Positions 1 to 55,382 of a stretch of 64,000 nt of DNA are shown piece by piece. The notes below the pieces were generated by a model. It saw nothing but the letters and a program-made list of their open reading frames with translations, made no database searches and was not told where the DNA came from. The stretch lies in NCBI GenBank assembly GCA_964016885.1, contig OZ024740.1, positions 58,156,001 through 58,220,000 on the forward strand, read 5' to 3'. How positions within the stretch are numbered: the first letter of the stretch is position 1; each line of letters opens with the position of its first letter. Made by a program: the position numbers and the translations under genes. The stretch comes from Eledone cirrhosa (taxonomy: Eukaryota).

Positions 1-299
1 AAGAATAAAACTTGCTGGCATTGAAGAAGATTTTGGAAGTCGTTATGCAAGGATATTTTTAACCAAATTAAATTTTCTAAATCAAATTCTTAAAATTTCA
101 ATTGTGCCTTAAAATAATTGCTGTGCTGCTTTTAAAATCAAATATATTTTAAGGCAAAATGTTTCTCCAAATACTGTCTCTTGTACAAGGTTTATTACTC
201 TACTTGTTTGAGGATAGGCATCTAACTGTTATTCATTTATCCCTACAGTGCATGTTTCTATATTTTGGAAACTATCACACCATGCTACATTGGAAAAAT

Positions 300-6606: not shown

Positions 6607-7008
6607 TATTAAAAAAATAATGAATAAACAAAGAAACAGTTCCTTATATTAAACCAAACAAAATTCATTATTTTACGATCGTTTCTAGGATATATATGTG
6701 TTAGAATTGGTATGCATATTCTATAGATCTATGTACAATATTTATACAAACTATCAGAAGGAATATACATACCTTCACATATATATGCTGTCTTCAGAAA
6801 TAATCTAATTTCTGAAGACAGCATATATATGTGAAGGTATGTATATTCCCTCTGATAGTTTGTATAAATATTGTACATAGATCTATAGAATATGCATACC
6901 AATTCTAACACATATATATCCTAGAAACGATCGTAAAATAATGAATTTTGTTTGGTTTAATATAAGGAACTGTTTCTTTGTTTATTCATTATTTTTTTAA
7001 TAATTTAT
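6601..7008. repeat. ~200-bp-arm palindrome, PLE-type fold-back, with a hammerhead motif in each arm
   Basis: Arms 6601-6801 and 6808-7008 are reverse complements (one mismatch seen) around a 6-nt loop AATCTA. Confidence 0.95.
6808..6939 (+). ncRNA. Type-I hammerhead motif with ~105-nt stem II (mirror copy on - strand at 6670-6801)
   Basis: ATTT-CTGAAGA-[long hairpin: ATATATATGTG/CACATATATAT, GGTATGTATATTC/GAATATGCATACC]-GAAA-CGATCG-TA-AAAT. Confidence 0.65.
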
Positions 7009-7157: not shown

Positions 7158-7271
7158 GTTGAAAAAAAAATGAAAACGAAATTTCATTTCTCACTCTTAG
7201 TATGGCACTTACTTAAATGTAAGTATGTATGTATACGTACATACATATATGTATACAGACGTACAGTAGCA

Positions 7272-7316
<45 letters not shown>

Positions 7317-7846
7317 GCATACAGGTACACATACATATATGCACGCATCAGTTTAGCCGACGTTTATTATAACGCAGCTTTGTTCGCTTGTTTGTCAACA
7401 AATCGAACAGCCTGAATTTATGCCATACGGTGTTAAGGCAACCACGTCACCTTTTTGTTCAACACTGACACAGGAACGATGTACTAGTTTCAAGCTTGTT
7501 AGCTATCATCAGCACCGTTTACCCATCTGCCAGATAGTTGAGCGTTCGAAAGTATATACTTTCCTTATGAAAATTAACGGCTGAGCAGCCTAATTTGCAT
7601 ATTGAGTGAGTTAAATCGGTCAGGCATACCGAAAACGACAAGTTGAAAAAAAATGAAAACGAAATTTCATTTCTCACTCTTAGTATGGCACTTACTTAAA
7701 TGTAAGTATGTATGTATACGTACATACATATATGTATACAGATGTACAGTAGCATGCATATATATATATATCGGCTAAACTGATGCGTGCATATATGTAT
7801 GTGTACCTGTATGCATTTCATTTTTTTTCAACTTGTCGTTTTCGGT
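7158..7846 (-). mobile_element. Retrozyme-like repeat family R1 (484-bp period, ~1.3 units) with 5' inverted piece
   Basis: Sequence from 7158 restarts at 7642. Hammerhead at 7475-7519 (-). 7771-7846 is reverse-complementary to 7315-7360 and 7627-7657. Confidence 0.75.
7475..7519 (-). ncRNA. Type-I hammerhead ribozyme (R1)
   Basis: AACGGTG-CTGATGA-T-AGCT-AACA-AGCT-T-GAAA-CTAG-TA-CATCGTT: 7-bp stem I, palindromic stem III, GUA site. Confidence 0.8.
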
Positions 7847-8229
7847 ACACAGGACCACTTCATGGCACAGGCCGTTTTTTCTTTGGGGAGTGGTCAATTA
7901 GCCATAGTGCTTTTTTGAAATAAATAAATAAGTAAATATATAAATATATAAATGAATAAATAGATAAATGAATAAATAAATAAATAAATAAATAAAAAAA
8001 AAAAATAAATAAATAAAAAAAAAAAATAAAAACCCCAAGAATAGTAATTCAACAAATATATAGTAGGGAAATTTTTTAGGTGGGTTGGTAATAGAAATTA
8101 AACATTTAACAAGACTGAATCATGGCGCAGACTGGGGTGAGTGGTCAAGTTAACATACAAGCCACAGGTGGCCAGAGTGTTTTTGTAGAATGGAAAGAAT
8201 AAAATATATTAACATATTCACAACCACAT

Positions 8230-8292
8230 ACAAAAACACTTACACACACATATATATACTTATATATATATATATGTGCACACCTACACATT

Positions 8293-8344
<52 letters not shown>

Positions 8345-8705
8345 TGTGTGTGCGTATACACATATACACACACACATACATACATACACATATATACATA
8401 TATACACAAGAAAAACACAAACACACAAATATACACACACGCACGCATACACATACACACACATATATATATCTACACATACACACGTGCGCATACACAT
8501 ACATATATATATATATATATATGTATACACATATATATATACACACCTACATGTACGTATGTCTCTCAGTATAAACTATACTATACATACACATACATAC
8601 ATATGCACACACACACATACATACACATACATACACACACACACAAACACATACATTCACACATATATATACATATATACACATACACACACACACACAT
8701 ATATA
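8230..8705. repeat. Compound (TA)n/(CA)n/(TACA)n microsatellite
   Basis: Direct reading. Confidence 0.95.
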
Positions 8706-9954
8706 ATCTCATATGTATGTTAATAAGCACCCCTGTTTGGCACAGCGGATGTAACCCATCCACGCTCGCCTACCCACCATTGGTGCATTGGTGGGTCTAT
8801 CCCGACGTGTATCTTGCGGATCTGTACCTCTGTATGCGCATGAGTTATGATGTAATGTATCTATGTAGAGCGTGTACTGTGATATAGGCTGCACAAATAG
8901 AAATTTAGCCTGTAACTGTGGGCGGACCTGTGCCATCTCGCCGTAAGCAGTAGATACGTGGCACATGTACGTGTTGCCCTCCTATTCTGTGGTTTAAGAT
9001 CTACAGGCTGACTTCTGGGAGCTCTTGCCCGGGGTTGTAGTCTTTCTAGCACGATTGGCCTTCCATATATTGACGGTCGTTGTTATTATCCCGAAAGTAA
9101 CGTTTTGGCCCCGATAGCCCTCCATAGTTACTAACGGTCTGTGTACACTTGAATCGGGCAATGGCACGTGCGGACATGATTATCTCCGTAGGATTTCAAT
9201 TTGATTTATTTTACTGCATCTCATCGTATGTATTTATTTTGAATGTATTATCCGTGGTGGTGGGTCTTGCCTAATGTGGTATTTCTGTGTTTAATATCAG
9301 CTTTGACCCGGGTGTCCTACGCTGTGTGTGTGGGCGTGTGTGTCTGTGTATACATTTATATGTGTATGGGTGTAGGTGGTTGTATATGTCTGTATATAAA
9401 AATATATATATATGTATACCGTCTCTGCATATGCATGTGGTGTGTATATGTGCATATACGTGCTGAACATATTGGTGTGTATAATCTTGAGATGTCCCAG
9501 TGCGGTGACTTCATGATATTGGCTCTTGAAGCTATTTTTTATATATCTTTTATTTTTTATATATCTTTTGTATGCGCTGTTGAGTATGCATATTAACCCG
9601 CCTGACCCAACTGTATCTGCTTGCTTTCGGCTAGCCCGCCTGCACCTGCTTGCTTTCGGCCCACCTGTCTGCCTCTTGCTGCTGCACGTGAATTCTCCTA
9701 CCTTCCTTCGATGTACCTCTGTTGACCATTGGACTCCTGCCCGGGTGTGAAGCGGTTTGTGATTACCCCACCGCTCAACTGTGTGAATGCACACCCGTGA
9801 CTTTCGAGTGAACTTTTGAGACTGCCCAACCTGGGACGTCTCCATTGCATTGCAATGGTCAAGTGATACTGATAACTGTGACACTTAGTGCCTTCGTGGG
9901 CCCCTGATATATTCAAGAAATATATTCTAAAATAATATATATCTTATCTCAATT

Positions 9955-10190
9955 TACTTTATTTTATTTTATTTTATTTTATTTCATTTCATTTTATTTA
10001 ATTTTATTTATTTAATTTTATTTATTTAATTATATCTTATATTATATTATTTTATTTTAGTTTATTTTATTTTTTATTTTATTTTATTTTATTTTATTTT
10101 ATCTTATTTTATTATTATATTATATTATATTCTATTTTATATAATTTTAATTTTAATTTTATATTATTTTATTCTATTTTATTTCATTCC
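9955..10190. repeat. (ATTTT)n / (ATATT)n low-complexity tract
   Basis: Direct reading. Confidence 0.9.
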
Positions 10191-10578
10191 TTACCCTGTA
10201 TCACTATTATCTGTATATTTTATATTTTATATATATGTTTTTTTATATTTTCTTATATATATTATAAGTCTATTTTTTACCTATTTTTCACCTATTTTTT
10301 ATCTACTCTTACCTAATCCTATCTATCTTATCTATTCTTGTCTGTTCTCTTATCCATGTGTATGCTTGTATGTAACTATATGTTGACAGCACCCCGCCCA
10401 ACTGTGACTGATAGCACCCCTTATTTTTCAATTATTTTTCATTGTTTATTTTTCAATGTTTATTTTTATTTTTATTTTTATTTTTACTTCCTCAATATCT
10501 TTTATCTTTTATTATTTTTCATTCTTTATTTCTTCAATGTCTTGGATTTGTTATTGCTTGTGTGGTATGTAATTAACC

Positions 10579-10634
10579 TTTATGCTCTGATGAGTCCCAC
10601 TTATAGTGCGGATGAAACAATGTTAGCAAGTAAA
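10579..10634 (+). ncRNA. Minimal type-I hammerhead ribozyme
   Basis: TTTATGCT-CTGATGA-GTCC-CACTTATAGTGC-GGAT-GAAA-CAATG-TT-AGCA(AG)TAAA. Confidence 0.7.
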
Positions 10635-10780
10635 GATATGCATATGCTATAGGTGTTCTTTGTTATTGATTATATCACGGCTCTGTCCTCAGACATCGAG
10701 CTAACCTTATACTGCCTGTTGGATAAGTGGAGTATTATACTATTATACACCCCTGATCCTCTCCCTAGTATACTATATAA

Positions 10781-10810
<30 letters not shown>

Positions 10811-10812
<2 letters not shown>

Positions 10813-11231
10813 TTCGTTTCTGAATTTGTTTAGCAAGATTCTTTATCTGAAATCGTGTGTTGAAACCGATATTGTTATACTTTGGGAGGGTCATGCTGCC
10901 AATAAGAAACACACGCACCTGTTGCTTTCACTTCAATTTATTATAATAAATTTATAATAAATTTATAAATTTATAAATTTCTGGTTGGTTGGTTGGTTCC
11001 ACAACCAGATAGTTGTTTATACATAGTCATAGTTCTTTCGTCACACATTCTGTGACCTCTTCAGTGACTGGGGATTCCTTTCTTTGTTCTGTCCTACGCC
11101 ATTTTGTTTCTGTGTGTGTGTTGTGTGCTCAGTCTGTGCATGCGCCACATCCGGGTGTCTGTGTGTTTATGTTCATTTGAAAGCTGCTGGTGCGTGTGTT
11201 TCCTATTGGCAACATGACCCTCCCAAAGTAT

Positions 11232-11238
<7 letters not shown>
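10811..11238 (-). mobile_element. PLE family A pseudo-LTR plus ORF start, with short 5' inverted duplication
   Basis: Reverse complement of 12230-12566, continuing into [27 protein letters not shown] (homologous to the PLE-B N-terminus). HHR at 11025-11069. 11184-11238 is an inverted copy of 10870-10920. Confidence 0.85.
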
Positions 11239-11318
<80 letters not shown>

Positions 11319-11604
11319 CACACACATACACATATACAAGCACACACGCATACATACACATACATACATACATACAAATAAGTACACATAAACGCATATG
11401 CAAAAACAAGCACTCGTTCGCACTCATACATGTGTATAATATAATGGTAGTGGGACAAATTTTAAATTTTAAATTTTAAACTGGGCCTGATAGAGGATTA
11501 AAATAATTAATATCACTACTAAGTTATTAATATTATCATCAAGTAATTAATTACGATTTATTATTTACTATTTACCATTCACTATTCGTTACTTATCTTT
11601 TATC

Positions 11605-12129
11605 TATACAACCCCTAGAGGCGAACTAGCCTACAAGTTTAGAAGGGCCCTAAATAAACATAATCTCAATATTAAGATAGTAGAAAGACCAGGTACCTCC
11701 GTAAAAACACTTATTAGCAAGACATACCCGTTCCAAAGACCCTCATGTATAGATAAGAAATGTATAACCTGTAAAATAAGCCCCCATATTAACTGTAAAA
11801 CTAGAAATGTAGTGTATAGCATAAGATGTACAGAAGGACAATGTAGAAACAAAAATATAGTGTACATAGGTGAGACAGCTCGTAGTATAGGGGAACGAAT
11901 AAATGAACACTGGCGAGACCTCCAAGATAATAAAGAATCATCTGTGCTCTACCAACGTGCTAAGATAGAACACAGAGGTAGACTAGAGAACATAGAAATA
12001 AAAATAGAATCCACACACAGAAAAGACGCAATGTTTAGGCAAATTACAGAGGCAGTAAGCATAAAAGAATTAAAACCAAAATTAAATAGAAAATATGAGT
12101 GGAACAGCAACATCACAACTTACAATTAA
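11605..12129 (+). pseudogene. 5'-truncated PLE family A ORF: Cys-rich linker and GIY-YIG endonuclease
   Basis: Open frame ...KTLISKTYPFQRPSCIDKKCITC...CKTRNVVYSIRC...IVYIGETARSIGERINEH...RQITEAVSI...LNRKYEW*, with GIY-YIG motifs VVY/YIG and conserved R, E, N. Confidence 0.9.
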
Positions 12130-12356
12130 GGACAAAATGAAAACACACACAGGACAAAATGAAAACACACACACACATAGAACAAACAACCAACCAACAA
12201 TAAATAAATAAATAAACAAATAGATAAATGAACACAAACACACACAGACACCCGGATGTGGCGTATGCGCAAACTGAGCACACAACACACACACAGAAAC
12301 AAAATGGCGTAGGATAGAAGAAAGGAAAGGCACAGAAACAAAGGAAAGGAATACCC

Positions 12357-12401
12357 AGTCACTGAAGAGGTCACAGAGTGTGTGACGAAAGGACTATGAC
12401 T
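12357..12401 (+). ncRNA. Hammerhead motif in PLE-A pseudo-LTR (second copy 11025-11069, -)
   Basis: AGTCA-CTGAAGAG-GTCACA-GAGTG-TGTGAC-GAAA-GGAC-TA-TGACT. Confidence 0.75.
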
Positions 12402-12588
12402 ATATATAAACAACTATCTGGTTGTGGAACCAACCAACCAACCAGAAATTTATAAGTTTGTAGATTTGTAAATTTATAAATTTATAAATATATAATAAAC
12501 TGAAGTGAAAGCAACTGGTGCGTGTGTTTCTTATTGGCAACATGACCCTCCCAAAGTATAACAATATGTATATATATGTATATATATG

Positions 12589-12669
<81 letters not shown>

Positions 12670-12969
12670 GTATATATATGTATATATATATATATGTATA
12701 TATATGTATATATATATATATGTATGTATATATATATGTATATATATATGTATATATATATGTATATATATATGTATATATATATATATGTATATATATA
12801 TGTATATATATATGTATATATATATGTATATATATATGTATATATATATGTATATATATATATATATGTATATATATATGTATATATATATGTATATATA
12901 TATGTATATATATATGTATATATATATGTATATATATATATATGTATATATATATGTATATATATATAA

Positions 12970-14683
12970 TTAAGTTAAAGATGTACATCCATATATGTAT
13001 ATATATATGTATATATATATATATGTATATATATATGTATATATATATAATTAAGTTAAAGATGTACATCCATATATGTATACTGAAATACTAGTATGTA
13101 TATGAATACACACACGTATACATATGTAGATGTACCAAGTTTTTTCACTGGTCACTTTACTGTGAGTGGCCAGCTATTCCGTATGTAAACACACAGACAA
13201 ACCGGTTTTTAGAGTCATACTGGTTTTTGAGGAAACACCTTTCCTCTATTCTCCAGAAAGCCAGATACATCTTTAACTTAATTGTTTAAGCGTCAGTCAT
13301 ACAAAAGTGAGTTACAAATGAAACGAAATTTAATTTCGTTTCGTTATTTGTTTTTATCGTCTCCGTTGAACCGGTACTTACTCATACTCTATGCAAATTA
13401 GTCTGCCCACTACTAATTTTCATAGAAAAACCATATAACGATATGTGCTTTTACGATTCTCTAGAGAGGCCGGAAGATAGGTAAATATTGCTGATGAGTT
13501 GTAACAACAACGAAACTAGTTCAATATTCCTTGTCTGGCTTTCTGGAGAATAGAGGAAAGGTGTTTCCTCAAAAACCAGTATGACTCTAAAAACCGGTTT
13601 GTCTGTGTGTTTACATACAGAATAGCTGGCCACTCACAGTAAAGTGACCAGTGAAAAAACTTGGTACATCTACATATGTATACGTGTGTGTATTCATATA
13701 CATACTAGTATTTCAGTATACATATATGGATGTACATCTTTAACTTAATTGTTTAAGCGTCAGTCATACAAAAGTGAGTTACAAATGAAACGAAATTTAA
13801 TTTCGTTTCGTTATTTGTTTTTATCGTCTCCGTTGAACCGGTACTTACTCACACTCTATGCAAATTAGTATGCCCACTACTAATTTTCATAGAAAAAGCA
13901 TATAACGATATGTGCTTTTACGATTCTCTAGAGAGGCCGGAAGATAGGTAAATATTGCTGATGAGTTGTAACAACAACGAAACTAGTTCAATATTCCTTG
14001 TCTGGCTTTCTAGAGAATAGAGGAAAGGTGTTTCCTCAAAAACCAGTATGACTCTAAAAACCGGTTTGTCTGTGTGTTTACATACAGAATAGCTGGCCAC
14101 TCACAGTAAAGTGACCAGTGAAAAAACTTGGTACATCTACATATGTATACGTGTGTGTATTCATATACATACTAGTATTTCAGTATACATATATGGATGT
14201 ACATCTTTAACTTAATTGTTTAAGCGTCAGTCATACAAAAGTGAGTTACAAATGAAACAAAATTTAATTTCGTTTCGTTATTTGTTTTTATCGTCTCCGT
14301 TGAACCGGTACTTACTCACACTCTATGCAAATTAGTATGCCCACTACTAATTTTCATAGAAAAAGCATATAACGATATGTGCTTTTACGATTCTCTAGAG
14401 AGGCCGGAAGATAGGTAAATATTGCTGATGAGTTGTAACAACAACGAAACTAGTTCAATATTCCTTGTCTGGCTTTCTGGAGAATAGAGGAAAGGTGTTT
14501 CCTCAAAAACCAGTATGACTCTAAAAACCGGTTTGTCTGTGTGTTTACATACAGAATAGCTGGCCACTCACAGTAAAGTGACCAGTGAAAAAACTTGGTA
14601 CATCTACATATGTATACGTGTGTGTATTCATATACATACTAGTATTTCAGTATACATATATGGATGTACATCTTTAACTTAAT
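12970..14683 (+). mobile_element. Retrozyme-like repeat family R2: three 467-bp tandem units (13266-14683) preceded by an inverted partial unit (12970-13265)
   Basis: Near-identical units with period 467, one hammerhead per unit, no credible ORF. Confidence 0.85.
13484..13528 (+). ncRNA. Type-I hammerhead ribozyme (R2); identical copies at 13951-13995 and 14418-14462
   Basis: AATATTG-CTGATGA-GTTGT-AACA-ACAAC-GAAA-CTAG-TT-CAATATT: perfect 7-bp stem I, 5-bp stem II, palindromic stem III. Confidence 0.9.
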
Positions 14684-14864
14684 TATATATATATACATAT
14701 ATATATACATATATATATATATACATATATATATACATACATATATATATACATATATATATACATATATATATACATATATATATACATATATATATAC
14801 ATATATATATACATATATATATACATATATATATACATACATATATATATATACATATATATAC

Positions 14865-15832: not shown

Positions 15833-18800
15833 TCAGCATGTACCCATGGGAGGTCGGGTACCCTGTATTACTGCGTGACGCCAGAAGTCACGGTCGTGTG
15901 TCATTGACTTTGAGAGGTGTAGTTGGGTAAGGTCGGCTTTTATCACCTCATCCCAAGTCATCTTGGGTCTCCCCACTCCGCGGTTTCCATCAACTTCTAG
16001 TGCTCTGCACCTTTTTATGCAGCTGTCATCCTTCATACGCATCACATGTCCATACCAGCGTAACCGCCTCTCCTGCACGCAGCATTTGATTCCTCTTATG
16101 CTCAGTCTCTCTCTCAATTCCTTTATGCTTTGTCGTTCACGTATATTACTGTTACACATCCATCGGAGCATGCAGGCTTCGTTTCTCTCTAATCTACGTA
16201 AGTCTTCCACCTTCAGCGCCCAGGTCTCACTACCATGCAACATCGCTGTTCGGATACACGCATCATACAGTCTGCCTTTCATTCTGAGGGAGAAGCCTTT
16301 TGCAGCTAGCAGTGGTAGTAGTTCCCTAAACTTCTTCCATCCCGTTCTTACCCTAGTTATTGTACTTTCTGAGCACCCACCTCCGTTGCTAATTCGGTCA
16401 CCTAGGTAGCAGAAGCTGTCTACTGTTTCTACAGGGCCCTCCCAGAGATTGGTGGTACTTGTTTCCTGTGGCTGTTTGCTTGCTGTTTCAGCACAGCTGC
16501 TGCATGTGAATCCTACATTCTTAATTAAGCTTCCTGAGATCCCGCTACATCTCTTGTGTACCCATTGTTTGCATTTGGGGCAGAGAATGGAGTTTCTACC
16601 TACACCTTTCCTACATACTGAGCAAGGCCATTTCCCTGAGGGGATCTGGGTTCTGTTTTCTCGTCTACTTACAAGGACCTTAGTCTTTGTCATGTTGACT
16701 TTGAGGCCCTTTCTCTCTAGTCCCTGCTTCCAGGTTTGGAATTTATTCTCTAGTTCTACCATAGATTCAGCTATGAGTGCGAGGTCATCAGCATACAGGA
16801 GTTCCCATGGGCATCCGGTCTTAAACTCCTCCGTTATTGCCTGCAGGACTATGATGAACAGGAGAGGGCTAAGAACAGAGCCCTGGTGGACCCCAACCTG
16901 TACGCTAAATTCCTCGCTATACTCATTGCCAATCCTAACTTTGCTGACTGCTCCCCTATACATGGCTTGTACCGCTTTCACAAGCCATTCATCTACTCCT
17001 AGTTTTCTAAGAGCCCACCAGATTACTGCACGTGGAACTCTGTCAAAGGCTTTCTCAAGGTCGACAAATGCCAAGTAGAGTGGCTTACTTTTAGCTAGGT
17101 ACTTTTCCTGTAATTGCCTCACAAGGAAGAGGGCATCAGTGGTGCCTTTCCCTGGTACAAACCCAAATTGCATCTCGTCTATATTCACCCGGTCCCTAAT
17201 CAGCTGTGCTATAACTCTTTCTGTTACTTTCATGACCTGGTCCATCAACTTTATACCTCTATAGTTTCCTCTATCTAGTGCATCGCCTTTACCTTTGTAG
17301 CAGTTGACAATGATGCTACTGCACCAATCTTTTGGTATGGCCCCCTCTAGTATTACCTGGTTAACGATACGTGTGGTTATAGTGTGACCTACAGACCCAG
17401 ATGCCTTCAGCATCTCGGCAGCTATACCCGATGGACCGGTTGCCTTCCCTATCTTCATATCTCTGATTGCCTTACTTACTACGCTGCCGCTGACTTGTAC
17501 TGCTGGTCCCTCTATAGGGTCTACGTGGGGTAGGGTCTCTTCTTCCCATGCATTCTCCTCATTTAGTAATCTATCATAATGACTCTTCCATGCATCTTTC
17601 TTCTCAGCACTTGTGAGGGCAAGCTCACCTTTATCATTCCGGATACACTTCTCTCCAATGACGTCACAACTATCTCTGACACACTGCCTCGCAATCTTGA
17701 ATACCTCCTGTTTCTGGTCCTCACGTTGTAAAACATGCTTGAATTTTCTATCCTCTGCTTCCCTCCTAGCTAAGTATACTTGTCGCCTAGCTTCCCTCTT
17801 GGTCTCTATGTAATGTACCCTGCTCCCCCCGTTCTTCCATTCTTTCCATGCCTGTCTCTTGGCCTTGACTGCTTCATCTACCTTATTGTTCCACCACCAA
17901 GTCACTCTCCTCCTGCTTGAGGTCTTACTCCAGCCACAAACCTCATCCGTCGCCTCTAGTAAGTTATTTTTTAGGAACTCCCAGTTCTCTTCTACGTTAA
18001 ATGTCTCTATCTGTTCTTCTTTACTGTCGTAGGCGTTGAGTAAAATACCTTTAAATCTGTTACTGGTTGAGGGGACTTTCAGCTTCCAGATCTTTCTTCT
18101 CCAGGTTGGCCTCTGTTTCAGGGCTCGTCTAGTTCTGACCGTGAGGTCGCTGACAACTAAGCTATGTTGGGATGTACATTCCTCACTAGGGAAGGCTTTT
18201 GTGTTTACGACCGTCCATCTGTCACGTCCTCTGATGAGGATAAAATCTAACTGACTAGAGTGCTCCCCTGATCTATAGGTGATCAGGTGGTTGTCGGGTT
18301 TTTTAAAGTTTGTGTTACATATCGACATGTCATTGGCGTCGCAGAATTCTAGAAGTCTGAATCCTTCCTCATTCCTTGTGCCAACTCCATGGCCTCCATG
18401 TACTCTATTGAAGCCGTCGCAGTGTTTACCTACGTGTCCGTTAAAATCTCCTGCAATGATTAGGAAGTCCTTGTCGTCTGTTAGAGCAGTAGTGTGTATT
18501 AGGGACTCGTAAAACCTATCCTTAAGTTCGTCTGGCAGCCCCGATTGGGGTGCGTAAGCTGATATTATTGTGGTAATTGTCTTATTCAGGACTAGTCTAA
18601 GTTTAATGATTCTTGCATTTACCCTGTACACTGAGATTACTTTATCTACCCACTTGTCAGCTAATAGTATACCTACACCACCCATCCCATCGTCATTTCC
18701 CACCCAGAAAAATTTGTAGCACTGGCTTTTTCCTACAAGGACTCTAGCAGACCCTCCTCTCCATCTAGTCTCTTGCACACTGCATACATCAACTTCCTTT

Positions 18801-18952
18801 CGCTCTAGCATTTCTACGATTTCTCCTGCTCTTCCTTTCATTGAGCCTACATTGATGGTACCAACTCGGAGTTTTGGGCATTTGTCGACACTCGTAGGGG
18901 AGGGTCTCTGGGTTGGCGCTTCACGTGGGTGCTTGGTAGCTCGCAGATTCAT
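15833..18952 (-). CDS. RTE LINE polyprotein: APE endonuclease, reverse transcriptase, C4HC3 PHD-like finger (1039 aa, intact)
   Basis: APE motifs GTINV, VQETRW, SAYAPQ, GDFNGH, LDFIL, SQH. RT motifs [40 protein letters not shown]-type C-terminus [11 protein letters not shown]...GRPKMTW. Confidence 0.97.
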   Translation of the reverse strand: MNLRATKHPREAPTQRPSPTSVDKCPKLRVGTINVGSMKGRAGEIVEMLERKEVDVCSVQETRWRGGSARVLVGKSQCYKFFWVGNDDGMGGVGILLADKWVDKVISVYRVNARIIKLRLVLNKTITTIISAYAPQSGLPDELKDRFYESLIHTTALTDDKDFLIIAGDFNGHVGKHCDGFNRVHGGHGVGTRNEEGFRLLEFCDANDMSICNTNFKKPDNHLITYRSGEHSSQLDFILIRGRDRWTVVNTKAFPSEECTSQHSLVVSDLTVRTRRALKQRPTWRRKIWKLKVPSTSNRFKGILLNAYDSKEEQIETFNVEENWEFLKNNLLEATDEVCGWSKTSSRRRVTWWWNNKVDEAVKAKRQAWKEWKNGGSRVHYIETKREARRQVYLARREAEDRKFKHVLQREDQKQEVFKIARQCVRDSCDVIGEKCIRNDKGELALTSAEKKDAWKSHYDRLLNEENAWEEETLPHVDPIEGPAVQVSGSVVSKAIRDMKIGKATGPSGIAAEMLKASGSVGHTITTRIVNQVILEGAIPKDWCSSIIVNCYKGKGDALDRGNYRGIKLMDQVMKVTERVIAQLIRDRVNIDEMQFGFVPGKGTTDALFLVRQLQEKYLAKSKPLYLAFVDLEKAFDRVPRAVIWWALRKLGVDEWLVKAVQAMYRGAVSKVRIGNEYSEEFSVQVGVHQGSVLSPLLFIIVLQAITEEFKTGCPWELLYADDLALIAESMVELENKFQTWKQGLERKGLKVNMTKTKVLVSRRENRTQIPSGKWPCSVCRKGVGRNSILCPKCKQWVHKRCSGISGSLIKNVGFTCSSCAETASKQPQETSTTNLWEGPVETVDSFCYLGDRISNGGGCSESTITRVRTGWKKFRELLPLLAAKGFSLRMKGRLYDACIRTAMLHGSETWALKVEDLRRLERNEACMLRWMCNSNIRERQSIKELRERLSIRGIKCCVQERRLRWYGHVMRMKDDSCIKRCRALEVDGNRGVGRPKMTWDEVIKADLTQLHLSKSMTHDRDFWRHAVIQGTRPPMGTC

Positions 18953-19192
18953 ATTTCATCTATTGATTCAGAGTTGCTCGTGTATTCCCAGCTCATCCAT
19001 CCATAACGGTGGGAAAATTGAGGGCTAGAAGAACAGTGGTGGTGGGGTAATGGCAGGGTGTGTTGGGATGCGCCAGAGGAGGAGAGAGTTAGTTAGGCAG
19101 GTAGTAGCAGCAGCAGTGGAAATGGCATGCTAGGTTTGATTGGTCGAATAGACTATGGTGGTGTGTGGGGGTGGGGGGAGGGAAATTGTGAG

Positions 19193-22100
19193 GTAGGAAC
19201 TGAGGGTCGCATGGTAAATATCCAAGTTAATAAGTTAATACTACATCAGTAAAATTAACAATAATAACGTCATGAAAAAAAAAAAAAAAAAAACTAAGAG
19301 AAACCCTAGAAAATTTATCGCTAATACAGCAGGGAAAATTTAACGCTAATACAGCAGGGAACATCATAATATTAACGACAATATGTAGGCTAAAATACCT
19401 TCGTAGATTAGATGGATGGCTGGAATAATTGGAGTCAGCTCTAGTGGTACATTTTAGCAGAGAAGAATGGGAAAGTATCTTATCTCTTCAATATTTTCAG
19501 ATTGAATGAATTAGGTTAAAGACAGGGTAGTAAGCCTTAAAGAAGTGCATAGAGAGGGGGGGGGGGTAGGAACTGAGGGTCGCATGGTAAATAACTGAGA
19601 GAGATACAATAGGATTAGAATACCGCATGGTAAATATCCAAGTTAATAAGTTAATACTACATCAGTAAAATTAACAATAATAACGTCATGAAAAAAACTA
19701 AGAGAAACCCTAGAAAATTTATCGCTAATACAGCAGGGAAAATTTAACGCTAATACAGCAGGGAACATCATAATATTAACGACAATATGTAGGCTAAAAT
19801 ACCTTCGTAGATTAGATGGATGGCTGGAATAATTGGAGTCAGCTCTAGTGGTACATTTTAGCAGAGAAGAATGGGAAAGTATCTTATCTCTTCAATATTT
19901 TCAGATTGAATGAATTAGGTTAAAGACAGGGTAGTAAGCCTTAAAGAAGTGCATAGAGAGGGGGGGGGTAGGAACTGAGGGTCGCATGGTAAATAACTGA
20001 GAGAGATACAATAGGATTAGAATACCGCATGGTAAATATCCAAGTTAATAAGTTAATACTACATCAGTAAAATTAACAATAATAACGTCATGAAAAAAAA
20101 AAAAAAAAAAAAACTAAGAGAAACCCTAGAAAATTTATCGCTAATACAGCAGGGAAAATTTAACGCTAATACAGCAGGGAACATCATAATATTAACGACA
20201 ATATGTAGGCTAAAATACCTTCGTAGATTAGATGGATGGCTGGAATAATTGGAGTCAGCTCTAGTGGTACATTTTAGCAGAGAAGAATGGGAAAGTATCT
20301 TATCTCTTCAATATTTTCAGATTGAATGAATTAGGTTAAAGACAGGGTAGTAAGCCTTAAAGAAGTGCATAGAGAGGGGGGGGGTGGGTTAGGAACTGAG
20401 GGTCGCATGGTAAATAACTGAGAGAGATACAATAGGATTAGAATACCGCATGGTAAATATCCAAGTTAATAAGTTAATACTACATCAGTAAAATTAACAA
20501 TAATAACGTCATGAAAAAAAAAAAAAAAAACTAAGAGAAACCCTAGAAAATTTATCGCTAATACAGCAGGGAAAATTTAACGCTAATACAGCAGGGAACA
20601 TCATAATATTAACGACAATATGTAGGCTAAAATACCTTCGTAGATTAGATGGATGGCTGGAATAATTGGAGTCAGCTCTAGTGGTACATTTTAGCAGAGA
20701 AGAATGGGAAAGTATCTTATCTCTTCAATATTTTCAGATTGAATGAATTAGGTTAAAGACAGGGTAGTAAGCCTTAAAGAAGTGCATAGAGAGGGGGGGG
20801 GGTAGGAACTGAGGGTCGCATGGTAAATAACTGAGAGAGATACAATAGGATTAGAATACCGCATGGTAAATATCCAAGTTAATAAGTTAATACTACATCA
20901 GTAAAATTAACAATAATAACGTCATGAAAAAAAAAAAAAAAAAAAAAAAAAAACTAAGAGAAACCCTAGAAAATTTATCGCTAATACAGCAGGGAAAATT
21001 TAACGCTAATACAGCAGGGAACATCATAATATTAACGACAATATGTAGGCTAAAATACCTTCGTAGATTAGATGGATGGCTGGAATAATTGGAGTCAGCT
21101 CTAGTGGTACATTTTAGCAGAGAAGAATGGGAAAGTATCTTATCTCTTCAATATTTTCAGATTGAATGAATTAGGTTAAAGACAGGGTAGTAAGCCTTAA
21201 AGAAGTGCATAGAGAGGGGGGGGGGGTAGGAACTGAGGGTCGCATGGTAAATAACTGAGAGAGATACAATAGGATTAGAATACCGCATGGTAAATATCCA
21301 AGTTAATAAGTTAATACTACATCAGTAAAATTAACAATAATAACGTCATGAAAAAAACTAAGAGAAACCCTAGAAAATTTATCGCTAATACAGCAGGGAA
21401 AATTTAACGCTAATACAGCAGGGAACATCATAATATTAACGACAATATGTAGGCTAAAATACCTTCGTAGATTAGATGGATGGCTGGAATAATTGGAGTC
21501 AGCTCTAGTGGTACATTTTAGCAGAGAAGAATGGGAAAGTATCTTATCTCTTCAATATTTTCAGATTGAATGAATTAGGTTAAAGACAGGGTAGTAAGCC
21601 TTAAAGAAGTGCATAGAGAGGGGGGGGGGGTAGGAACTGAGGGTCGCATGGTAAATAACTGAGAGAGATACAATAGGATTAGAATACCGCATGGTAAATA
21701 TCCAAGTTAATAAGTTAATACTACATCAGTAAAATTAACAATAATAACGTCATGAAAAAAACTAAGAGAAACCCTAGAAAATTTATCGCTAATACAGCAG
21801 GAAAATTTAACGCTAATACAGCAGGGAACATCATAATATTAACGACAATATGTAGGCTAAAATACCTTCGTAGATTAGATGGATGGCTGGAATAATTGGA
21901 GTCAGCTCTAGTGGTACATTTTAGCAGAGAAGAATGGGAAAGTATCTTATCTCTTCAATATTTTCAGATTGAATGAATTAGGTTAAAGACAGGGTAGTAA
22001 GCCTTAAAGAAGTGCATAGAGAGGGGGGGGTAGGAACTGAGGGTCGCATGGTAAATAACTGAGAGAGATACAATAGGATTAGAATACCGCATGGTAAATA

Positions 22101-24003
22101 TCCAAGTTAATAAGTTAATACTACATCAGTAAAATTAACAATAATAACGTCATGAAAAAAACTAAGAGAAACCCTAGAAAATTTATCGCTAATACAGCAG
22201 GGAAAATTTAACGCTAATACAGCAGGGAACATCATAATATAACGACAATATGTAGGCTAAAATACCTCGTAGATTAGATGGATGGCTGGAATAATTGGAG
22301 TCAGCTCTAGTGGTACATTTTAGCAGAGAAGAATGGAAAGTATCTTATCTCTTCAATATTTTCAGATTGAATGAATTAGGTTAAAGACAGGGTAGTAAGC
22401 CTTAAAGAAGTGCATAGAGAGGGGGGGTAGGAACTGAGGGTCGCATGGTAAATATCCAAGTTAATAAGTTAATACTACATCAGTAAAATTAACAATAATA
22501 ACGTCATGAAAAAAACTAAGAGAAACCCTAGAAAATTTATCGCTAATACAGCAGGGAAAATTTAACGCTAATACAGCAGGGAACATCATAATATTAACGA
22601 CAATATGTAGGCTAAAATACCTTCGTAGATTAGATGGATGGCTGGAATAATTGGAGTCAGCTCTAGTGGTACATTTTAGCAGAGAAGAATGGGAAAGTAT
22701 CTTATCTCTTCAATATTTTCAGATTGAATGAATTAGGTTAAAGACAGGGTAGTAAGCCTTAAAGAAGTGCATAGAGAGGGGGGGGGGGGGGGGGTAGGAA
22801 CTGAGGGTCGCATGGTAAATAACTGAGAGAGATACAATAGGATTAGAATACCGCATGGTAAATATCCAAGTTAATAAGTTAATACTACATCAGTAAAATT
22901 AACAATAATAACGTCATGAAAAAAACTAAGAGAAACCCTAGAAAATTTATCGCTAATACAGCAGGGAAAATTTAACGCTAATACAGCAGGGAACATCATA
23001 ATATTAACGACAATATGTAGGCTAAAATACCTTCGTAGATTAGATGGATGGCTGGAATAATTGGAGTCAGCTCTAGTGGTACATTTTAGCAGAGAAGAAT
23101 GGGAAAGTATCTTATCTCTTCAATATTTTCAGATTGAATGAATTAGGTTAAAGACAGGGTAGTAAGCCTTAAAGAAGTGCATAGAGAGGGGGGGTAGGAA
23201 CTGAGGGTCGCATGGTAAATATCCAAGTTAATAAGTTAATACTACATCAGTAAAATTAACAATAATAACGTCATGAAAAAAACTAAGAGAAACCCTAGAA
23301 AATTTATCGCTAATACAGCAGGGAAAATTTAACGCTAATACAGCAGGGAACATCATAATATTAACGACAATATGTAGGCTAAAATACCTTCGTAGATTAG
23401 ATGGATGGCTGGAATAATTGGAGTCAGCTCTAGTGGTACATTTTAGCAGAGAAGAATGGGAAAGTATCTTATCTCTTCAATATTTTCAGATTGAATGAAT
23501 TAGGTTAAAGACAGGGTAGTAAGCCTTAAAGAAGTGCATAGAGAGGGGGGGGGGGGGTAGGAACTGAGGGTCGCATGGTAAATAACTGAGAGAGATACAA
23601 TAGGATTAGAATACCGCATGGTAAATATCCAAGTTAATAAGTTAATACTACATCAGTAAAATTAACAATAATAACGTCATGAAAAAAACTAAGAGAAACC
23701 CTAGAAAATTTATCGCTAATACAGCAGGGAAAATTTAACGCTAATACAGCAGGGAACATCATAATATTAACGACAATATGTAGGCTAAAATACCTTCGTA
23801 GATTAGATGGATGGCTGGAATAATTGGAGTCAGCTCTAGTGGTACATTTTAGCAGAGAAGAATGGGAAAGTATCTTATCTCTTCAATATTTTCAGATTGA
23901 ATGAATTAGGTTAAAGACAGGGTAGTAAGCCTTAAAGAAGTGCATAGAGAGGGGGGGTAGGAACTGAGGGTCGCATGGTAAATATCCAAGTTAATAAGTT
24001 AAT
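19193..24003 (-). repeat. Tandem array of 12 full plus 1 partial ~360-425-bp monomers at the 5' end of RTE-A
   Basis: TAGGAACTGAGGGTCGCATGG recurs at about 19193, 19566, 19968, 20390, 20802, 21226, 21630, 22030, 22427, 22794, 23194, 23557 and 23957. Units differ mainly by poly-A/poly-G length and a ~40-bp indel. Confidence 0.97.
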
Positions 24004-28199: not shown

Positions 28200-28201
<2 letters not shown>

Positions 28202-29326
28202 AGTTAAAAATGTACATCCACATATGTATACTGAAATATTAGTATGCATATGAATACACACACGTGTACATATGTAGATGTACCGAGTTTTTCACTGGAC
28301 ACTTTACTGTGAGTGTTCAGCTATTCTGTATGTAAACACACAGACAAACCGGTTTTTAGAGTCATACTGGTTTTCGAGGAAACACCTTTCCTCTACTCTG
28401 CAGAAAGCCAGACAGGAATATTGGAGTAGTTTCGATGTTGTTACATCTCATCAGCAATATTTACCTATCCTCCGGCCTTTCTAGAGAATCGTAAAAGCAC
28501 ATATCGTTATATGCTTTTTCTATGAAAATTAGTAGTGGGCAGACTAATTTGCATAGAGTGTGAGTACGTACCGGTTCAGCGGAGACGATAAAAACAAATA
28601 ACGAAACGAAGTTAAATTTCGTTTCGTTTGTAACTCACTTTTGTATGACTGACGCTTAAACAATTAAGTTTAAAATGTACATCCACATATGTATACTGAA
28701 ATACTAGTATGCATATCACGCTCTATGCAAATTAGTCTGCCCACTACTAATTTTCATAGAAAAAGCATATAACGATACGTGCTTTTACGATTCTCTAGAA
28801 AGGCCGGAGGATAGGTAAATATTGCTGATGAGATGTAACAACATCGAAACTTGTCCAATATTCCTGTCTGGCTTTCTGCAGAATAGAGGAAAGGGGTTTC
28901 CTCGAAAAGCAGTACGACTCTAAAAACCGGTTTGTCTGTGTGTTTACATACAGAATAGCTGAACACTCACAGTAAAGTGTCCAGTGAAAAACTCGGTACA
29001 TCTACATATGTACACGTGTGTGTATTCATATGCATACTAATATTTCAGTATACATATGTGGATGGACATTTTTAACTTAATTGTTTAAGCGTCAGTCATA
29101 CAAAAGTGAGTTACAAACGAAACAAAATTTAATTTCGTTTCGTTATTTGTTTTTATCGTCTCCGTTGAACCGGTACTTACTCACACTCTATGCAAATTAG
29201 TCTGCCCACTACTAATTTTCATAGAAAAAGCATATAACGATATGTGCTTTTACGATTCTCTAGAGAGGCCGGAAGATAGGTAAATATTGCTGATGAGTTG
29301 TAACAACAACAAAACTAGTTCAATAT
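28200..29326. mobile_element. Second R2 locus: one unit on - (28200-28716) head-to-head with ~1.3 units on + (28717-29326)
   Basis: Diverged homologue of 13266-14683. HHRs at 28417-28461 (-), 28818-28862 (+) and 29283-29326 (+, GAAA mutated to AAAA). Confidence 0.85.
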
Positions 29327-54162: not shown

Positions 54163-55256
54163 ATGTAAGTATGTATGTATACGTACATACATATATGTAT
54201 ACAGACGTACAGTAGCATGCATATATATATATATATAGAGAGACTGAGCATAAGAGGAATCAAATGCTGCGTGCAGGAGAGGCGGTTACGCTGGTATGGA
54301 CATGTGATGCGTATGAAGGATGACAGCTGCATAAAAAGGTGCAGAGCACTAGAAGTTGATGGAAACCGCGGAGTGGGGAGACCCAAGATGACTTGGGATG
54401 AGGTGATAAAAGCCGACCTTACCCAACTACACCTCTCAAAGAGAATGACACACGACCGTGACTTCTGGCGTCACGCAGTAATACAGGCTACCCGACCTCC
54501 TATGGGTACATGCTGAAGCATATAAACAATATGCCCCCACTCCCCCCACCGCAAGGTGGTCGTGGAGGTGCCACGGCAAAAAAGCACCCAGCCCACACTG
54601 TAAAGTGGACGTGTAGGCGCCACGAAAAAGCACCCAGCACTCACTGTAAATGAGGTTGGTGTTAGGAAGGGCATCCAGCTGTAGAAATCAAGCCAGATCA
54701 GTTCCTGTATGAGCAAGGCATGGTCAGCCGACCAGACACTGCCCACAACAGGACAACCCGTCTAACCCATGCTAGCGTGGAAGAACGGACGTAAAACGGT
54801 GATGATGATGATGATGATGATATATACATACAGGTACACATACATATATGTACGTATCAGTTTAGCGGATGCTTATTATAACGCCCGCTTTGTTAGTTTG
54901 TAAACAAACTGAACAGCCTGAATTTATGCCGTATGGTGTTAAGGCAACCACGTCACCTTTTTGTTCAACACTGACACAGGAACGATGTACTAGTTTCAAG
55001 CTTGTTAGCTATCATCAGCACCATAAACCCTTCTGCCAGATGGTTGAACGTTCGAAAGTATATACTTTCCTTATGAAAATTAACGGCTGAGCAGCCTAAT
55101 TTGCATATCGAGTGAGTTCGACCAGGCGTACCGAGAACGATAAGTTGTAATAAAATGAAAACAAAATTTCATTTCTCACTCTTAGTACGGCACTTACTTA
55201 AATGTAAGTATGTATGTATACGTACATACATATATGTATACAGACGTACAGTAGCA

Positions 55257-55304
<48 letters not shown>

Positions 55305-55345
55305 CAGGTACACATACATATATGTACGTATCAGTTTAGCGGATG
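54163..55345 (-). mobile_element. Second R1 locus (~1.4 units), interrupted by RTE-A; hammerhead 54981-55025
   Basis: Homologous to 7158-7770. Confidence 0.8.
54237..54821 (+). mobile_element. 5'-truncated RTE family A copy inserted in the internal (TA)n of an R1 monomer
   Basis: [11 protein letters not shown]...PPMGTC*, 3' UTR, (GAT)n. R1 sequence is contiguous on both sides. Confidence 0.93.
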
Positions 55346-55382
55346 CTTATTATAACGCCCGCTTTATATATATATATATATA

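Follow-up and report, generated by a model that had tools for sequence, protein, structure and literature searches.

Repeat families R1 and R2

The 64-kb window, that is, the whole stretch of Eledone cirrhosa DNA that was analysed, contains insertions of two tandemly repeated families, R1 and R2 (Table 1). The R1 unit measures 467 bp and the R2 unit about 486 bp, and homology spans the entire unit: a global alignment of whole units gave 302 identical positions of 442 and a score of 311, against a mean of 116 (sd 11, maximum 140) for 100 shuffles, and the promoter segment discussed below agrees at 46 of 61 positions. The similarity exceeds chance by far, and R1 and R2 are two young members of one repeat superfamily. 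Exact patterns running from an octamer to the ribozyme core matched 24,610 + 1,798 times across the genome (more than 26,000 copies, a count for the superfamily, R1 and R2 included), and reversed controls gave no match. Unit lengths are 467 bp and 426–608 bp, the GC content of the region is 28–32%, and the predicted RNA folds of the monomers have z of about −10. The units show neither a protein-coding frame nor an LTR layout, and the ORF list of the window holds no ORF of at least 110 aa inside them once the TA-repeat frames at their edges are set aside. The hammerhead core is present in all three full R1 units at 13266–14684, and the second R1 insertion carries a compensatory stem II variant, GATGT/ACATC. 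Four contig sets yielded variants, joins of tandem or circular type and, at 13357, a loose (AT)n end, although contigs cannot show starts or circles and three of the four sets have low depth.

Table 1. Features of R1 and R2, in window coordinates
Feature	Position	Strand	Remarks
R1, direct arm, three 467-bp units	13266..14684	+	terminates ...CTTAATT adjoining (AT)n
R1, inverted arm, 5'-truncated, head-to-head	13050..13265	−	same end type, adjoins (TA)n
R1, second insertion, head-to-head arms	28200..29326	.	93–98% identical
R2, about 1.3 units of ~486 bp	7158..7771	−	3' end CAACT adjoins (AT)n at 7158
Short inverted pieces after R2	7771–7847
R2, second insertion	54822..55365	−	90–94% identical
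Hairpin common to R1 and R2, then T5 and TTAT	13314..13357	+	TTAT: 3' end favoured by the long arms of insertions elsewhere
R1, TATGCAAATTAG element	13390..13401	+	5' arm of hairpin (a); octamer A at 13391
R1, CCAC	13407..13410	+	at position of PSE-like (T)CAG in sister families; weak match, rank 14 of 104
R1, TATA-like box	13434..13439	+	43 nt past octamer A; within hairpin (b)
R1, predicted transcription start	13463..13464	+	inferred from TATA+29/30; 5' strand of extended stem I
R1, type I hammerhead	13473..13544	+	stem I 13484–13490/13522–13528, TA bulge, core 13491–13497, stem II with AACA loop, palindromic stem III ACTAGT, GUU site, predicted cleavage after 13521
R2, TATGCAAATTAG element	7590..7601	−	octamer 7600–7593
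R2, TCAG	7581..7584	−	−56 from predicted start (host U1/U2: TCAGT at −56 to −58)
R2, TATATAC box	7552..7558	−	42 nt past octamer A
R2, predicted transcription start	A7528	−	C/AGATGGG, start at the A
R2, type I hammerhead	7464..7528	−	stem I 7519–7513/7481–7475, core 7512–7506, GUA site, predicted cleavage after 7482

The predicted hammerhead ribozyme

A preliminary description of this DNA listed five motifs, (a) to (e), the first two being hairpins, in the same order in both families, and all five were found. It regarded them as an old family of structured RNA that might be novel; the age and the type I hammerhead are borne out by stems that covary across 23 representatives, and the novelty of the class is not, as R1 and R2 match known non-LTR retrozymes. 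The CTGATGA core lies at 13491 (+) in R1 and from 7512 (−) in R2, whose stem II begins with U.U. Among the 23 representatives, 73% of ribozyme stem cells are paired, against 36–40% when the stems are slid, and two-sided change affects 14 of the 17 hammerhead pairs, the pair counts being made without phylogeny correction. The "near-complete" stem covariation claimed between R1 and R2 was overstated: two-sided change is seen in only 6 of the 14 core pairs (3/7 in stem I, 3/5 in stem II, 0/2 in stem III), and one stem II pair is broken. Loop 2, given as an identical AACA, has that sequence in R1 and R2 but reads AATA, AATG or AGTT in sister families.

Stem III of R1 is the palindrome ACTAGT, a type reported to cleave poorly as a monomer and well as a dimer (PMC7229834), which suggests dimer cleavage rather than the efficient monomer ribozyme supposed earlier. 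It is palindromic in 12 of the 23 representatives, with four different sequences. A strict hammerhead fold test was passed by only 11 of 41 representatives, and since one of nine Xenopus retrozyme dimers cleaved in vitro (bioRxiv 10.64898/2026.07.22.740005), a good-looking fold is no guarantee of activity. The Rfam search of the 64-kb window returned no match at the gathering threshold. The R1 core aligns across the whole Hammerhead_HH9 model (RF02275) at 37.7 bits (E 6.4e-7), yet under the gathering score of 52, and R2 reaches 18.5 bits (E 0.96); many miRNA matches at E<=1 are TA-repeat noise. Pattern matches in metagenome and viral contigs served as a chance control only, and none of the 120 metagenome matches listed or of the 59 viral ones folds as a hammerhead.

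Upstream hairpins and a promoter-like module

Hairpins (a) and (b) overlie TATGCAAAT(G/T)AG and a TATA box 41–45 nt downstream. The position of hairpin (a) and its 11 identical outer positions hold for R1 and R2; the C.U mismatch does not hold as a conserved RNA element, for it varies in sister families, and in the R2' subfamily the mismatched C is paired with G. The inner stems also need amendment: the first copy of R1 reads TAGTC and AAAACCATAT, the TAGTA and AAAAGCATAT given earlier come from the copies at 13857 and 14324, and the R2 stem GGCTG/CAGCC is possible only as a 4-bp stem with a tetraloop. Because all 11 outer positions are identical between R1 and R2, they carry no covariation information, and RNAalifold on four subfamilies found no two-sided change in hairpin (a). 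Across families the octamer arm is kept while its pairing partner and register shift or vanish, so that hairpin (a) is unsupported as a conserved RNA element.

The octamer, placed 80–90 nt upstream of the core in the preliminary description, ends 92 nt before it in R1 and 80 nt in R2, and the side remark there on an snRNA-like promoter turned out to be the best lead. Host promoters carry a near-identical element. Five host promoter types (three for U6, located on C5, on C9 and in the C19 array, plus U6atac and MRP) have TATG(C/G)(A/T)AAT(G/T)AG at −76 to −78 together with TATA at −30. That element is absent from all nine host U1/U2 promoter types, which have TCAGT/TCAAT at −56 to −58. Nor does it occur in front of 14 dispersed U6 hits, of five among the 11 copies in the C19 array or of five other U6atac hits; these U6 and U6atac copies were set aside by judgement as retrocopies or disrupted copies. 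A distal motif, TTA(C/T)(C/T)TCCC, lies near −260 in host U1, U2 and U6, and is absent from all 45 full repeat monomers checked. The octamer was also considered as the distal (DSE) element of host U1/U2, and this was rejected, exact ATGCAAAT occurring in none of 20 distinct 330-nt upstream sequences.

To test the module, 41 representatives were compared with 179 chance hits to the same pattern (the metagenome matches listed and the viral contigs), using features absent from the search patterns. TATA at +41..45 occurs in 30 of 41 representatives and 7 of 179 chance matches, CA at +17/18 (the U1/U2 PSE position) in 36 and 8, and YAG at +71..74 in 30 and 13, respectively. The distance from TATA to YAG is a constant 29–31 nt in 21 of 30, and that from YAG to the core ranges over 14–31 nt; because the representatives share ancestry, the common motif spacing may be mere descent. 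Most of them were found through a pattern containing the octamer, and the invariance of the octamer in alignment A3 is therefore built in; within an unselected set, 13 of 30 loci have it exactly, and 8 of these 13 form one duplicated cluster. With the Pol II PSE matrix the PSE-like site ranks 1–2 in 10 of 18 families, with scores mostly under the host range of 13.9–20.1, and R1 matches poorly. Octamer, TATA, CA and YAG together form a predicted snRNA-type promoter whose RNA would start at hammerhead stem I. Since the predicted hammerhead stands directly behind host-like snRNA promoter signals, these mobile elements of a known type likely carry their own promoter.

Insertion geometry

Among 41 loci, 22 have a head-to-head and one a tail-to-tail architecture, and 45 of 51 visible ends adjoin (TA)n, in which no TSD is readable. 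Arms end at two homologous sites about 55–70 nt apart. The insertions have Penelope-type geometry, with an inverted 5'-truncated arm, a one-sided tail of about 55–70 nt and a (TA)n target. According to PMC8557442, Penelope-like elements (PLEs) show inverted 5'-truncated copies, a one-sided tail of 30–40 bp and (TA)n targets, and their pseudo-LTRs share with R1 and R2 the type I hammerhead and partial tandems as well; R1 and R2 differ in that no RT/GIY-YIG ORF is attached, and the PLE termini sampled are without an octamer-TATA module. A T-run lies just upstream of the preferred 3' end in both families. Pol III termination was considered as the cause of the fixed 3' ends and rejected, as it fits R1 and not R2, which ends 4–6 nt beyond the T-run, also in copies whose run is broken.

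Proposed cycle and alternative explanations

We consider it probable that R1 and R2 are related non-coding retrozyme tandem repeats, that the so-called hairpins are a built-in snRNA-type promoter, and that the elements propagate as follows. The promoter at the end of one unit would start RNA 14–31 nt before the core, just including stem I of the next hammerhead, and the polymerase would read across one unit to the hammerhead after it. As in axolotl- and newt-type ribozymes, the two hammerheads may then pair via their palindromic stem III and free a unit-length RNA, which a host ligase, by analogy with other retrozymes, would close into a circle containing the promoter sequence folded as hairpins. 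A Penelope-like RT/endonuclease, presumed from the observed geometry, would nick (TA)n and prime at AU-rich sites beside the common 3' hairpin; copying more than one turn would restore the promoter upstream of a ribozyme, and priming off both target strands would yield head-to-head arms. As to the polymerase that would transcribe the units, RNA polymerase II is slightly favoured over Pol III, as a plausible choice. More tentatively, the superfamily may have captured a hybrid snRNA promoter, joining the upstream element of Pol III genes to the PSE core and TATA geometry of Pol II genes and carried via the RNA circle, so that Penelope rolling reverse transcription would regenerate an external promoter at each insertion.

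Somewhat doubtful is the variant in which the same element and cycle use a U6-like Pol III promoter, unit-length RNA arising by partial read-through of internal T-runs. The strongest conserved motif is indeed that of the five host Pol III promoter types and of none of the nine Pol II snRNA types, the elements score 12.1–19.7 on the host matrix (host genes 17.0–20.3), a T-run precedes the preferred 3' end in both families, and the Schistosoma Sm-alpha elements are reported as Pol III-transcribed (PMC6765202). However, Pol III would likely stop ahead of the second ribozyme at the T5 of all seven distinct R1 monomers and at the T5–T9 present in 18 of the 32 monomers of the R2 group, and the position of R2 ends relative to the T-run also speaks against it. 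The distance from octamer to TATA is 42–45 nt in the elements against 46–48 nt in host Pol III genes, a shortfall of 3–5 nt. TCAG at −56/−57, TATA at −30 and a start at the A of CA match host U1. It is unlikely that the upstream hairpins are kept purely as RNA, for recognition by a protein, ligase or RT, with read-through from outside and a likeness to host promoters that is inherited or accidental. Most families have predicted hairpins covering both motifs, more stable than those of host promoters, and in several families the promoter region forms a good RNA fold (z −6.7 in R1, against −1.6 to +1.6 in host promoters). R1 and R2 also have other helices in common, among them GAGT/ACTC and the 3' hairpin, and read-through transcription has been proposed for metazoan retrozymes (PMC7761336); against this stand the constant left arm with its shifting partner, the lack of two-sided change in hairpin (a), and three motifs in host-like order and spacing.

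Similarly unlikely is an origin of R1 and R2 as pseudo-LTRs, solo or amplified, belonging to an unsampled autonomous Penelope-like family that owns both promoter and ribozyme. The insertion geometry would suit it, PLEs are abundant in the genome (10,595 first-look GIY-YIG candidates), and 24 of 57 Xenopus retrozyme families match Repbase TEs, nearly all of them PLE termini (bioRxiv 10.64898/2026.07.22.740005). Yet none of the 30 GIY-YIG loci examined out of 150 scored contains a same-strand octamer element, their termini match R1, R2, R3 and R5 in repetitive sequence at most, and no autonomous partner with attached RT and GIY-YIG ORF came to light among them; an apparent match of R5 to PLE ends was a single incidental neighbour in L147. 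The PLE endonuclease of the window likewise matches no repeat locus, and pure arrays of at least 30 units exist. Such long, near-identical arrays, and the decayed cores of many old copies, would be expected of a satellite amplified at the DNA level, whether through unequal exchange or as rolling-circle DNA, whose ribozyme and promoter would be fossils. This is very improbable, given that the insertions are dispersed, that their 3' ends are fixed and lie in (TA)n, that 5' truncation varies and inversion occurs, and that young subfamilies show compensatory stem changes.

Relation to known retrozymes

The promoter of the Schistosoma Sm-alpha elements is tRNA-like and internal, and that of newt satellite 2 is said to contain an octamer. 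R1 and R2, with the probable built-in promoter, fit the non-LTR retrozyme class. Metazoan non-LTR retrozymes (Cervera and de la Pena 2020, PMC7229834; Li et al. bioRxiv 10.64898/2026.07.22.740005) are likewise non-coding tandem units of low GC, each bearing a single type I hammerhead with its stem I bulge and loop 2; their predicted RNA is highly self-paired, and PLEs occur in the same genome. Axolotl HHR_Amex1 has a palindromic short stem III, like R1, and HHR_Amex2 has U.U at the base of stem II, like R2. The units lie slightly above the 150–450 bp range of 2020 and within 51–972 bp, and they show PLE-type head-to-head arms and one-sided tails directly. The 2020 review describes retrozymes as seemingly without a promoter or a conserved motif pointing to a partner (PMC7761336), in contrast to the conserved promoter-like module of R1 and R2.

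Hammerhead repeats that bear a promoter have precedents in newt satellite 2 and Sm-alpha. According to PMC2220036 and PMC6765202, newt satellite 2 (Coats et al. 1994) is a hammerhead tandem repeat with an internal snRNA-type promoter, reported to be transcribed by Pol II, and its stem III is weak and palindromic; R1 shares the palindrome, and compared with it R1 and R2 have an octamer-like element about 72 nt before the predicted start and a TATA box, matching host Pol III-type snRNA genes. In Sm-alpha SINE-like elements the promoter precedes the hammerhead, as in R1 and R2, and comes to lie at the 3' end of the cleaved RNA, so that only tandem copies can propagate (PMC6765202); the layout of R1 and R2 is of the external snRNA type. 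Our literature search, which left aside Coats et al. 1994 and the supplement of PMC7229834, both possibly relevant, found no promoter of this layout in retrozymes and no cephalopod retrozymes.

With the element class already known, the promoter hypothesis and the insertion geometry address how animal retrozymes are transcribed and which enzyme moves them, and the former gives exact, mutable positions drawn from host U6, U6atac, MRP, U1 and U2 genes. If the hybrid promoter is real, snRNA-type promoters would recur as the engine behind animal ribozyme circles, and the host would possess a polymerase-choice code, an octamer-like element at −77 versus TCAGT at −57, of which we found no description in the literature. 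The host promoter layout is also of use for guide-RNA expression in this lineage.

Two Related Repeats with One Hammerhead Architecture

R1 and R2, two related non-coding tandem repeats, each with one extra insertion inside the window, are a real feature and on every testable feature belong to the known class of non-LTR retrozymes; sequence, copy number, ribozyme-stem covariation, likeness to host promoters and insertion geometry were established directly. The two are homologous along the whole unit (302/442 identical; alignment score 311 versus 116 ± 11 in 100 shuffles), and the five motifs of the preliminary description were all found in R1 and R2. Both units fold well beyond shuffles (z of −10.1 for R1 and −9.7 for R2). 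Each contains a type I hammerhead comprising a 7-bp stem I below a TA bulge, CTGATGA, a stem II with AACA, and GAAA, while stem III is very short and the site is GUU in R1 and GUA in R2. An Rfam search of the window gave no match at gathering level; for the HH9 model, whose threshold is 52 bits, R1 reaches 37.7 bits and R2 18.5.

Main features of R1, R2 and the Penelope-like element (PLE) in the window
Feature	Position	Remarks
R1 repeat, 467 bp	13266-14684	three direct units
R1 partial arm, inverted	13050-13265	
R2 repeat, ~486 bp	7158-7771	minus strand
5'-truncated Penelope-like element	10821-12567	in (TA)n
GIY-YIG (endonuclease domain) ORF of PLE	11551-12129	PF01541, 22.7 bits
Pseudo-LTR (pLTR) hammerhead of PLE	12362	
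Inverted pLTR of PLE	10869-11178	extra ~48-nt tail

Metazoan non-LTR retrozymes have been defined, with circles shown in coral, mussel and axolotl and mobilisation by PLEs proposed, in a study whose results and discussion mention neither cephalopods nor an element promoter (PMC7229834). Elsewhere, retrozymes are derived from PLE termini, one of nine Xenopus retrozyme dimers being active (bioRxiv 10.64898/2026.07.22.740005), and they seem to be without promoters or conserved motifs (PMC7761336).

Sister Families and Ribozyme Covariation

Near-complete stem covariation between R1 and R2 had been claimed, but among the 14 core pairs only six changed on both sides and one was broken, and the hairpin before the hammerhead whose 5' arm holds the octamer, hairpin (a), is identical at its outer 11 positions. 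Sister families were sought in order to gain real variation. With R1 and R2 left out, a core pattern matched 67 times versus 30 in the control and brought out older families, and the octamer-to-core patterns TATGCAAATGA and TATGCAAATTAG gave 1,798 and 24,610 matches, respectively, with none in either reversed control. Older sister families (labelled R3, R4, R5 and others) have the same promoter-ribozyme layout, and R5 pieces are likewise arranged as head-to-head pairs.

Across 23 representatives, chosen by hand, the ribozyme helices hold, with 73% of cells paired versus 36–40% when slid, two-sided change in 14 of 17 pairs, and a covariation score of 0.48 versus 0.24 shuffled, kinship being ignored. 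Loop 2, previously regarded as conserved, reads AATA, AATG, AGTT or otherwise as well as AACA across the families, and is thus not invariant; a stem I/loop 2 contact is backed as a general feature of type I hammerheads in PMC6155905. Nor does hairpin (a) behave as a kept helix, since pairing of the octamer arm differs from family to family: it is complete in R1 and R2, its C pairs with G in the R2' subfamily, only the 3' half pairs in R5, and the arm is mostly unpaired in other families. Stem III is a 6-nt palindrome (ACTAGT, ACATGT, ATGCAT or ACGCGT) in 12/23 representatives, and axolotl ribozymes with such stems are described as cleaving poorly alone and well as dimers (PMC7229834); by analogy, hammerheads of the R1/R2 type would cleave as dimers.

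A Likely snRNA-Type Promoter

In human snRNA promoters an octamer, a PSE (proximal sequence element) and TATA are described, and the rule of polymerase choice varies by lineage (PMC9652321). The exact octamer was absent within 330 nt of host U1 and U2 (20 distinct upstream sequences). Instead, TCAGT or TCAAT stands at −56 to −58 in nine U1/U2 promoter types; a TATA-like run is also seen near −30. TATG(C/G)(A/T)AAT(G/T)AG at −76 to −78 together with TATA at −30 was found in two dispersed U6 genes, the C19 U6 array, U6atac and RNase MRP. This octamer-like element resembles a POU consensus. It is missing from 14 other U6 matches, five other U6atac matches and 5/11 array copies examined, which were set aside as retrocopies or disrupted copies. 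In those array copies another repeat occupies its place and the TATA box is kept; the dispersed promoterless U6 and U6atac copies, several adjoining (TA)n, are likely retrocopies. TTA(C/T)(C/T)TCCC near −260 to −290 is common to host U1, U2 and U6.

For the repeats, 41 representatives (47 clusters minus six without exact TATGCAAAT(G/T)A) were set against 179 sequences that match this pattern by chance, and only features lying outside the search patterns were counted. Counting from the octamer A, TATA starts at +41 to +45 in 30/41 (chance, 7/179), CA lies at +17/18 in 36/41 (8/179) and YAG at +71 to +74 in 30/41 (13/179), counts that are not independent events because the families are related. 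Setting TATA at −30 places CA at the U1/U2 PSE position and YAG at +1. TATA-to-YAG distance is 29–31 nt in 21/30, and YAG-to-core distance ranges from 14 to 31 nt; the 5' strand of stem I is where the predicted start falls, which for R2 is the A of the AGAT-RGG motif.

As suggested earlier, the repeats likely carry their own snRNA-type promoter, judged by comparison with the host's genes. Octamer-to-TATA spacing, however, falls 3–5 nt short of that in the host's Pol III genes, 45/45 monomers lack the distal host motif, and R1 matches the Pol II PSE poorly. Part of the octamer's invariance among the aligned representatives stems from the search pattern itself; in a set unselected for it, which includes chance matches, it is exact in 13/30 loci, eight from one duplicated cluster. 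Predicted RNA folding of the promoter region is also stronger than that of host promoters, so that constraints on DNA and RNA may act together.

The transcription start is a prediction, and for the polymerase the sequence features pull in two directions. Pol III is suggested by the upstream element, which is the strongest motif, and Sm-alpha is reported to have a Pol III promoter that comes to lie at the 3' end of the cleaved RNA. Internal T5 runs in 7/7 R1 monomers and T5–T9 in 18/32 R2-group monomers, as well as the U1-like geometry, point to Pol II, a precedent being newt satellite 2, whose snRNA promoter is reported to be used by that polymerase (both precedents in PMC6765202 and PMC2220036). 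This promoter-ribozyme layout was not described in the portions of the literature searched, newt satellite 2 being judged from citing passages.

Insertion Geometry and Penelope-Like Elements

Among 41 non-overlapping R1/R2 loci (67 less 26 overlapping or self), head-to-head junctions are seen in 22 and a tail-to-tail one in 1, and 45 of 51 visible outer ends adjoin (TA)n, 13 further ends lying beyond the locus. Ends gather at two homologous sites (unit positions 229–234 and 303 in R1, 265–268 and about 324 in R2), of which the later, TTAT|CG, follows a hairpin common to both. Contigs from a public run have this (AT)n end too, at 13357. For PLEs, inverted copies truncated at the 5' end, tails on one side and (TA)n targets are described (PMC8557442), and the window's own PLE has this form. 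Its geometry is like that of R1 and R2, whereas the octamer is absent from it. Of 30 GIY-YIG loci searched for a partner, none shows the element on its coding strand and none has a homologous terminus. A Penelope-like enzyme would mobilise R1 and R2, and the repeat RNA would form circles. The new trait is the combination of a likely self-carried snRNA-type promoter with Penelope-type insertion geometry, which is directly testable.

Other Repeats in the Window

More hammerhead-like cores, in other repeat families, lie at 10587+, 46605−, 50516−, 38218−, 40998−, 61567+ and 59733−, and the repeats at 46.3 kb and 50.2 kb have the tail of the PLE in common. A 404-bp tandem unit is present in about 12 copies (19208-23984), inside which the window core scan found no CTGANGA core. 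An open 1040-aa APE-RT frame at 15833-18955 (−), presumably an RTE-type LINE, has copies near 34.5, 51 and 56 kb and (CAT)n ends. Finally, a near-perfect 376-bp palindrome (98%) at 6618-6991, adjoining (TA)n, is possibly another head-to-head insertion.
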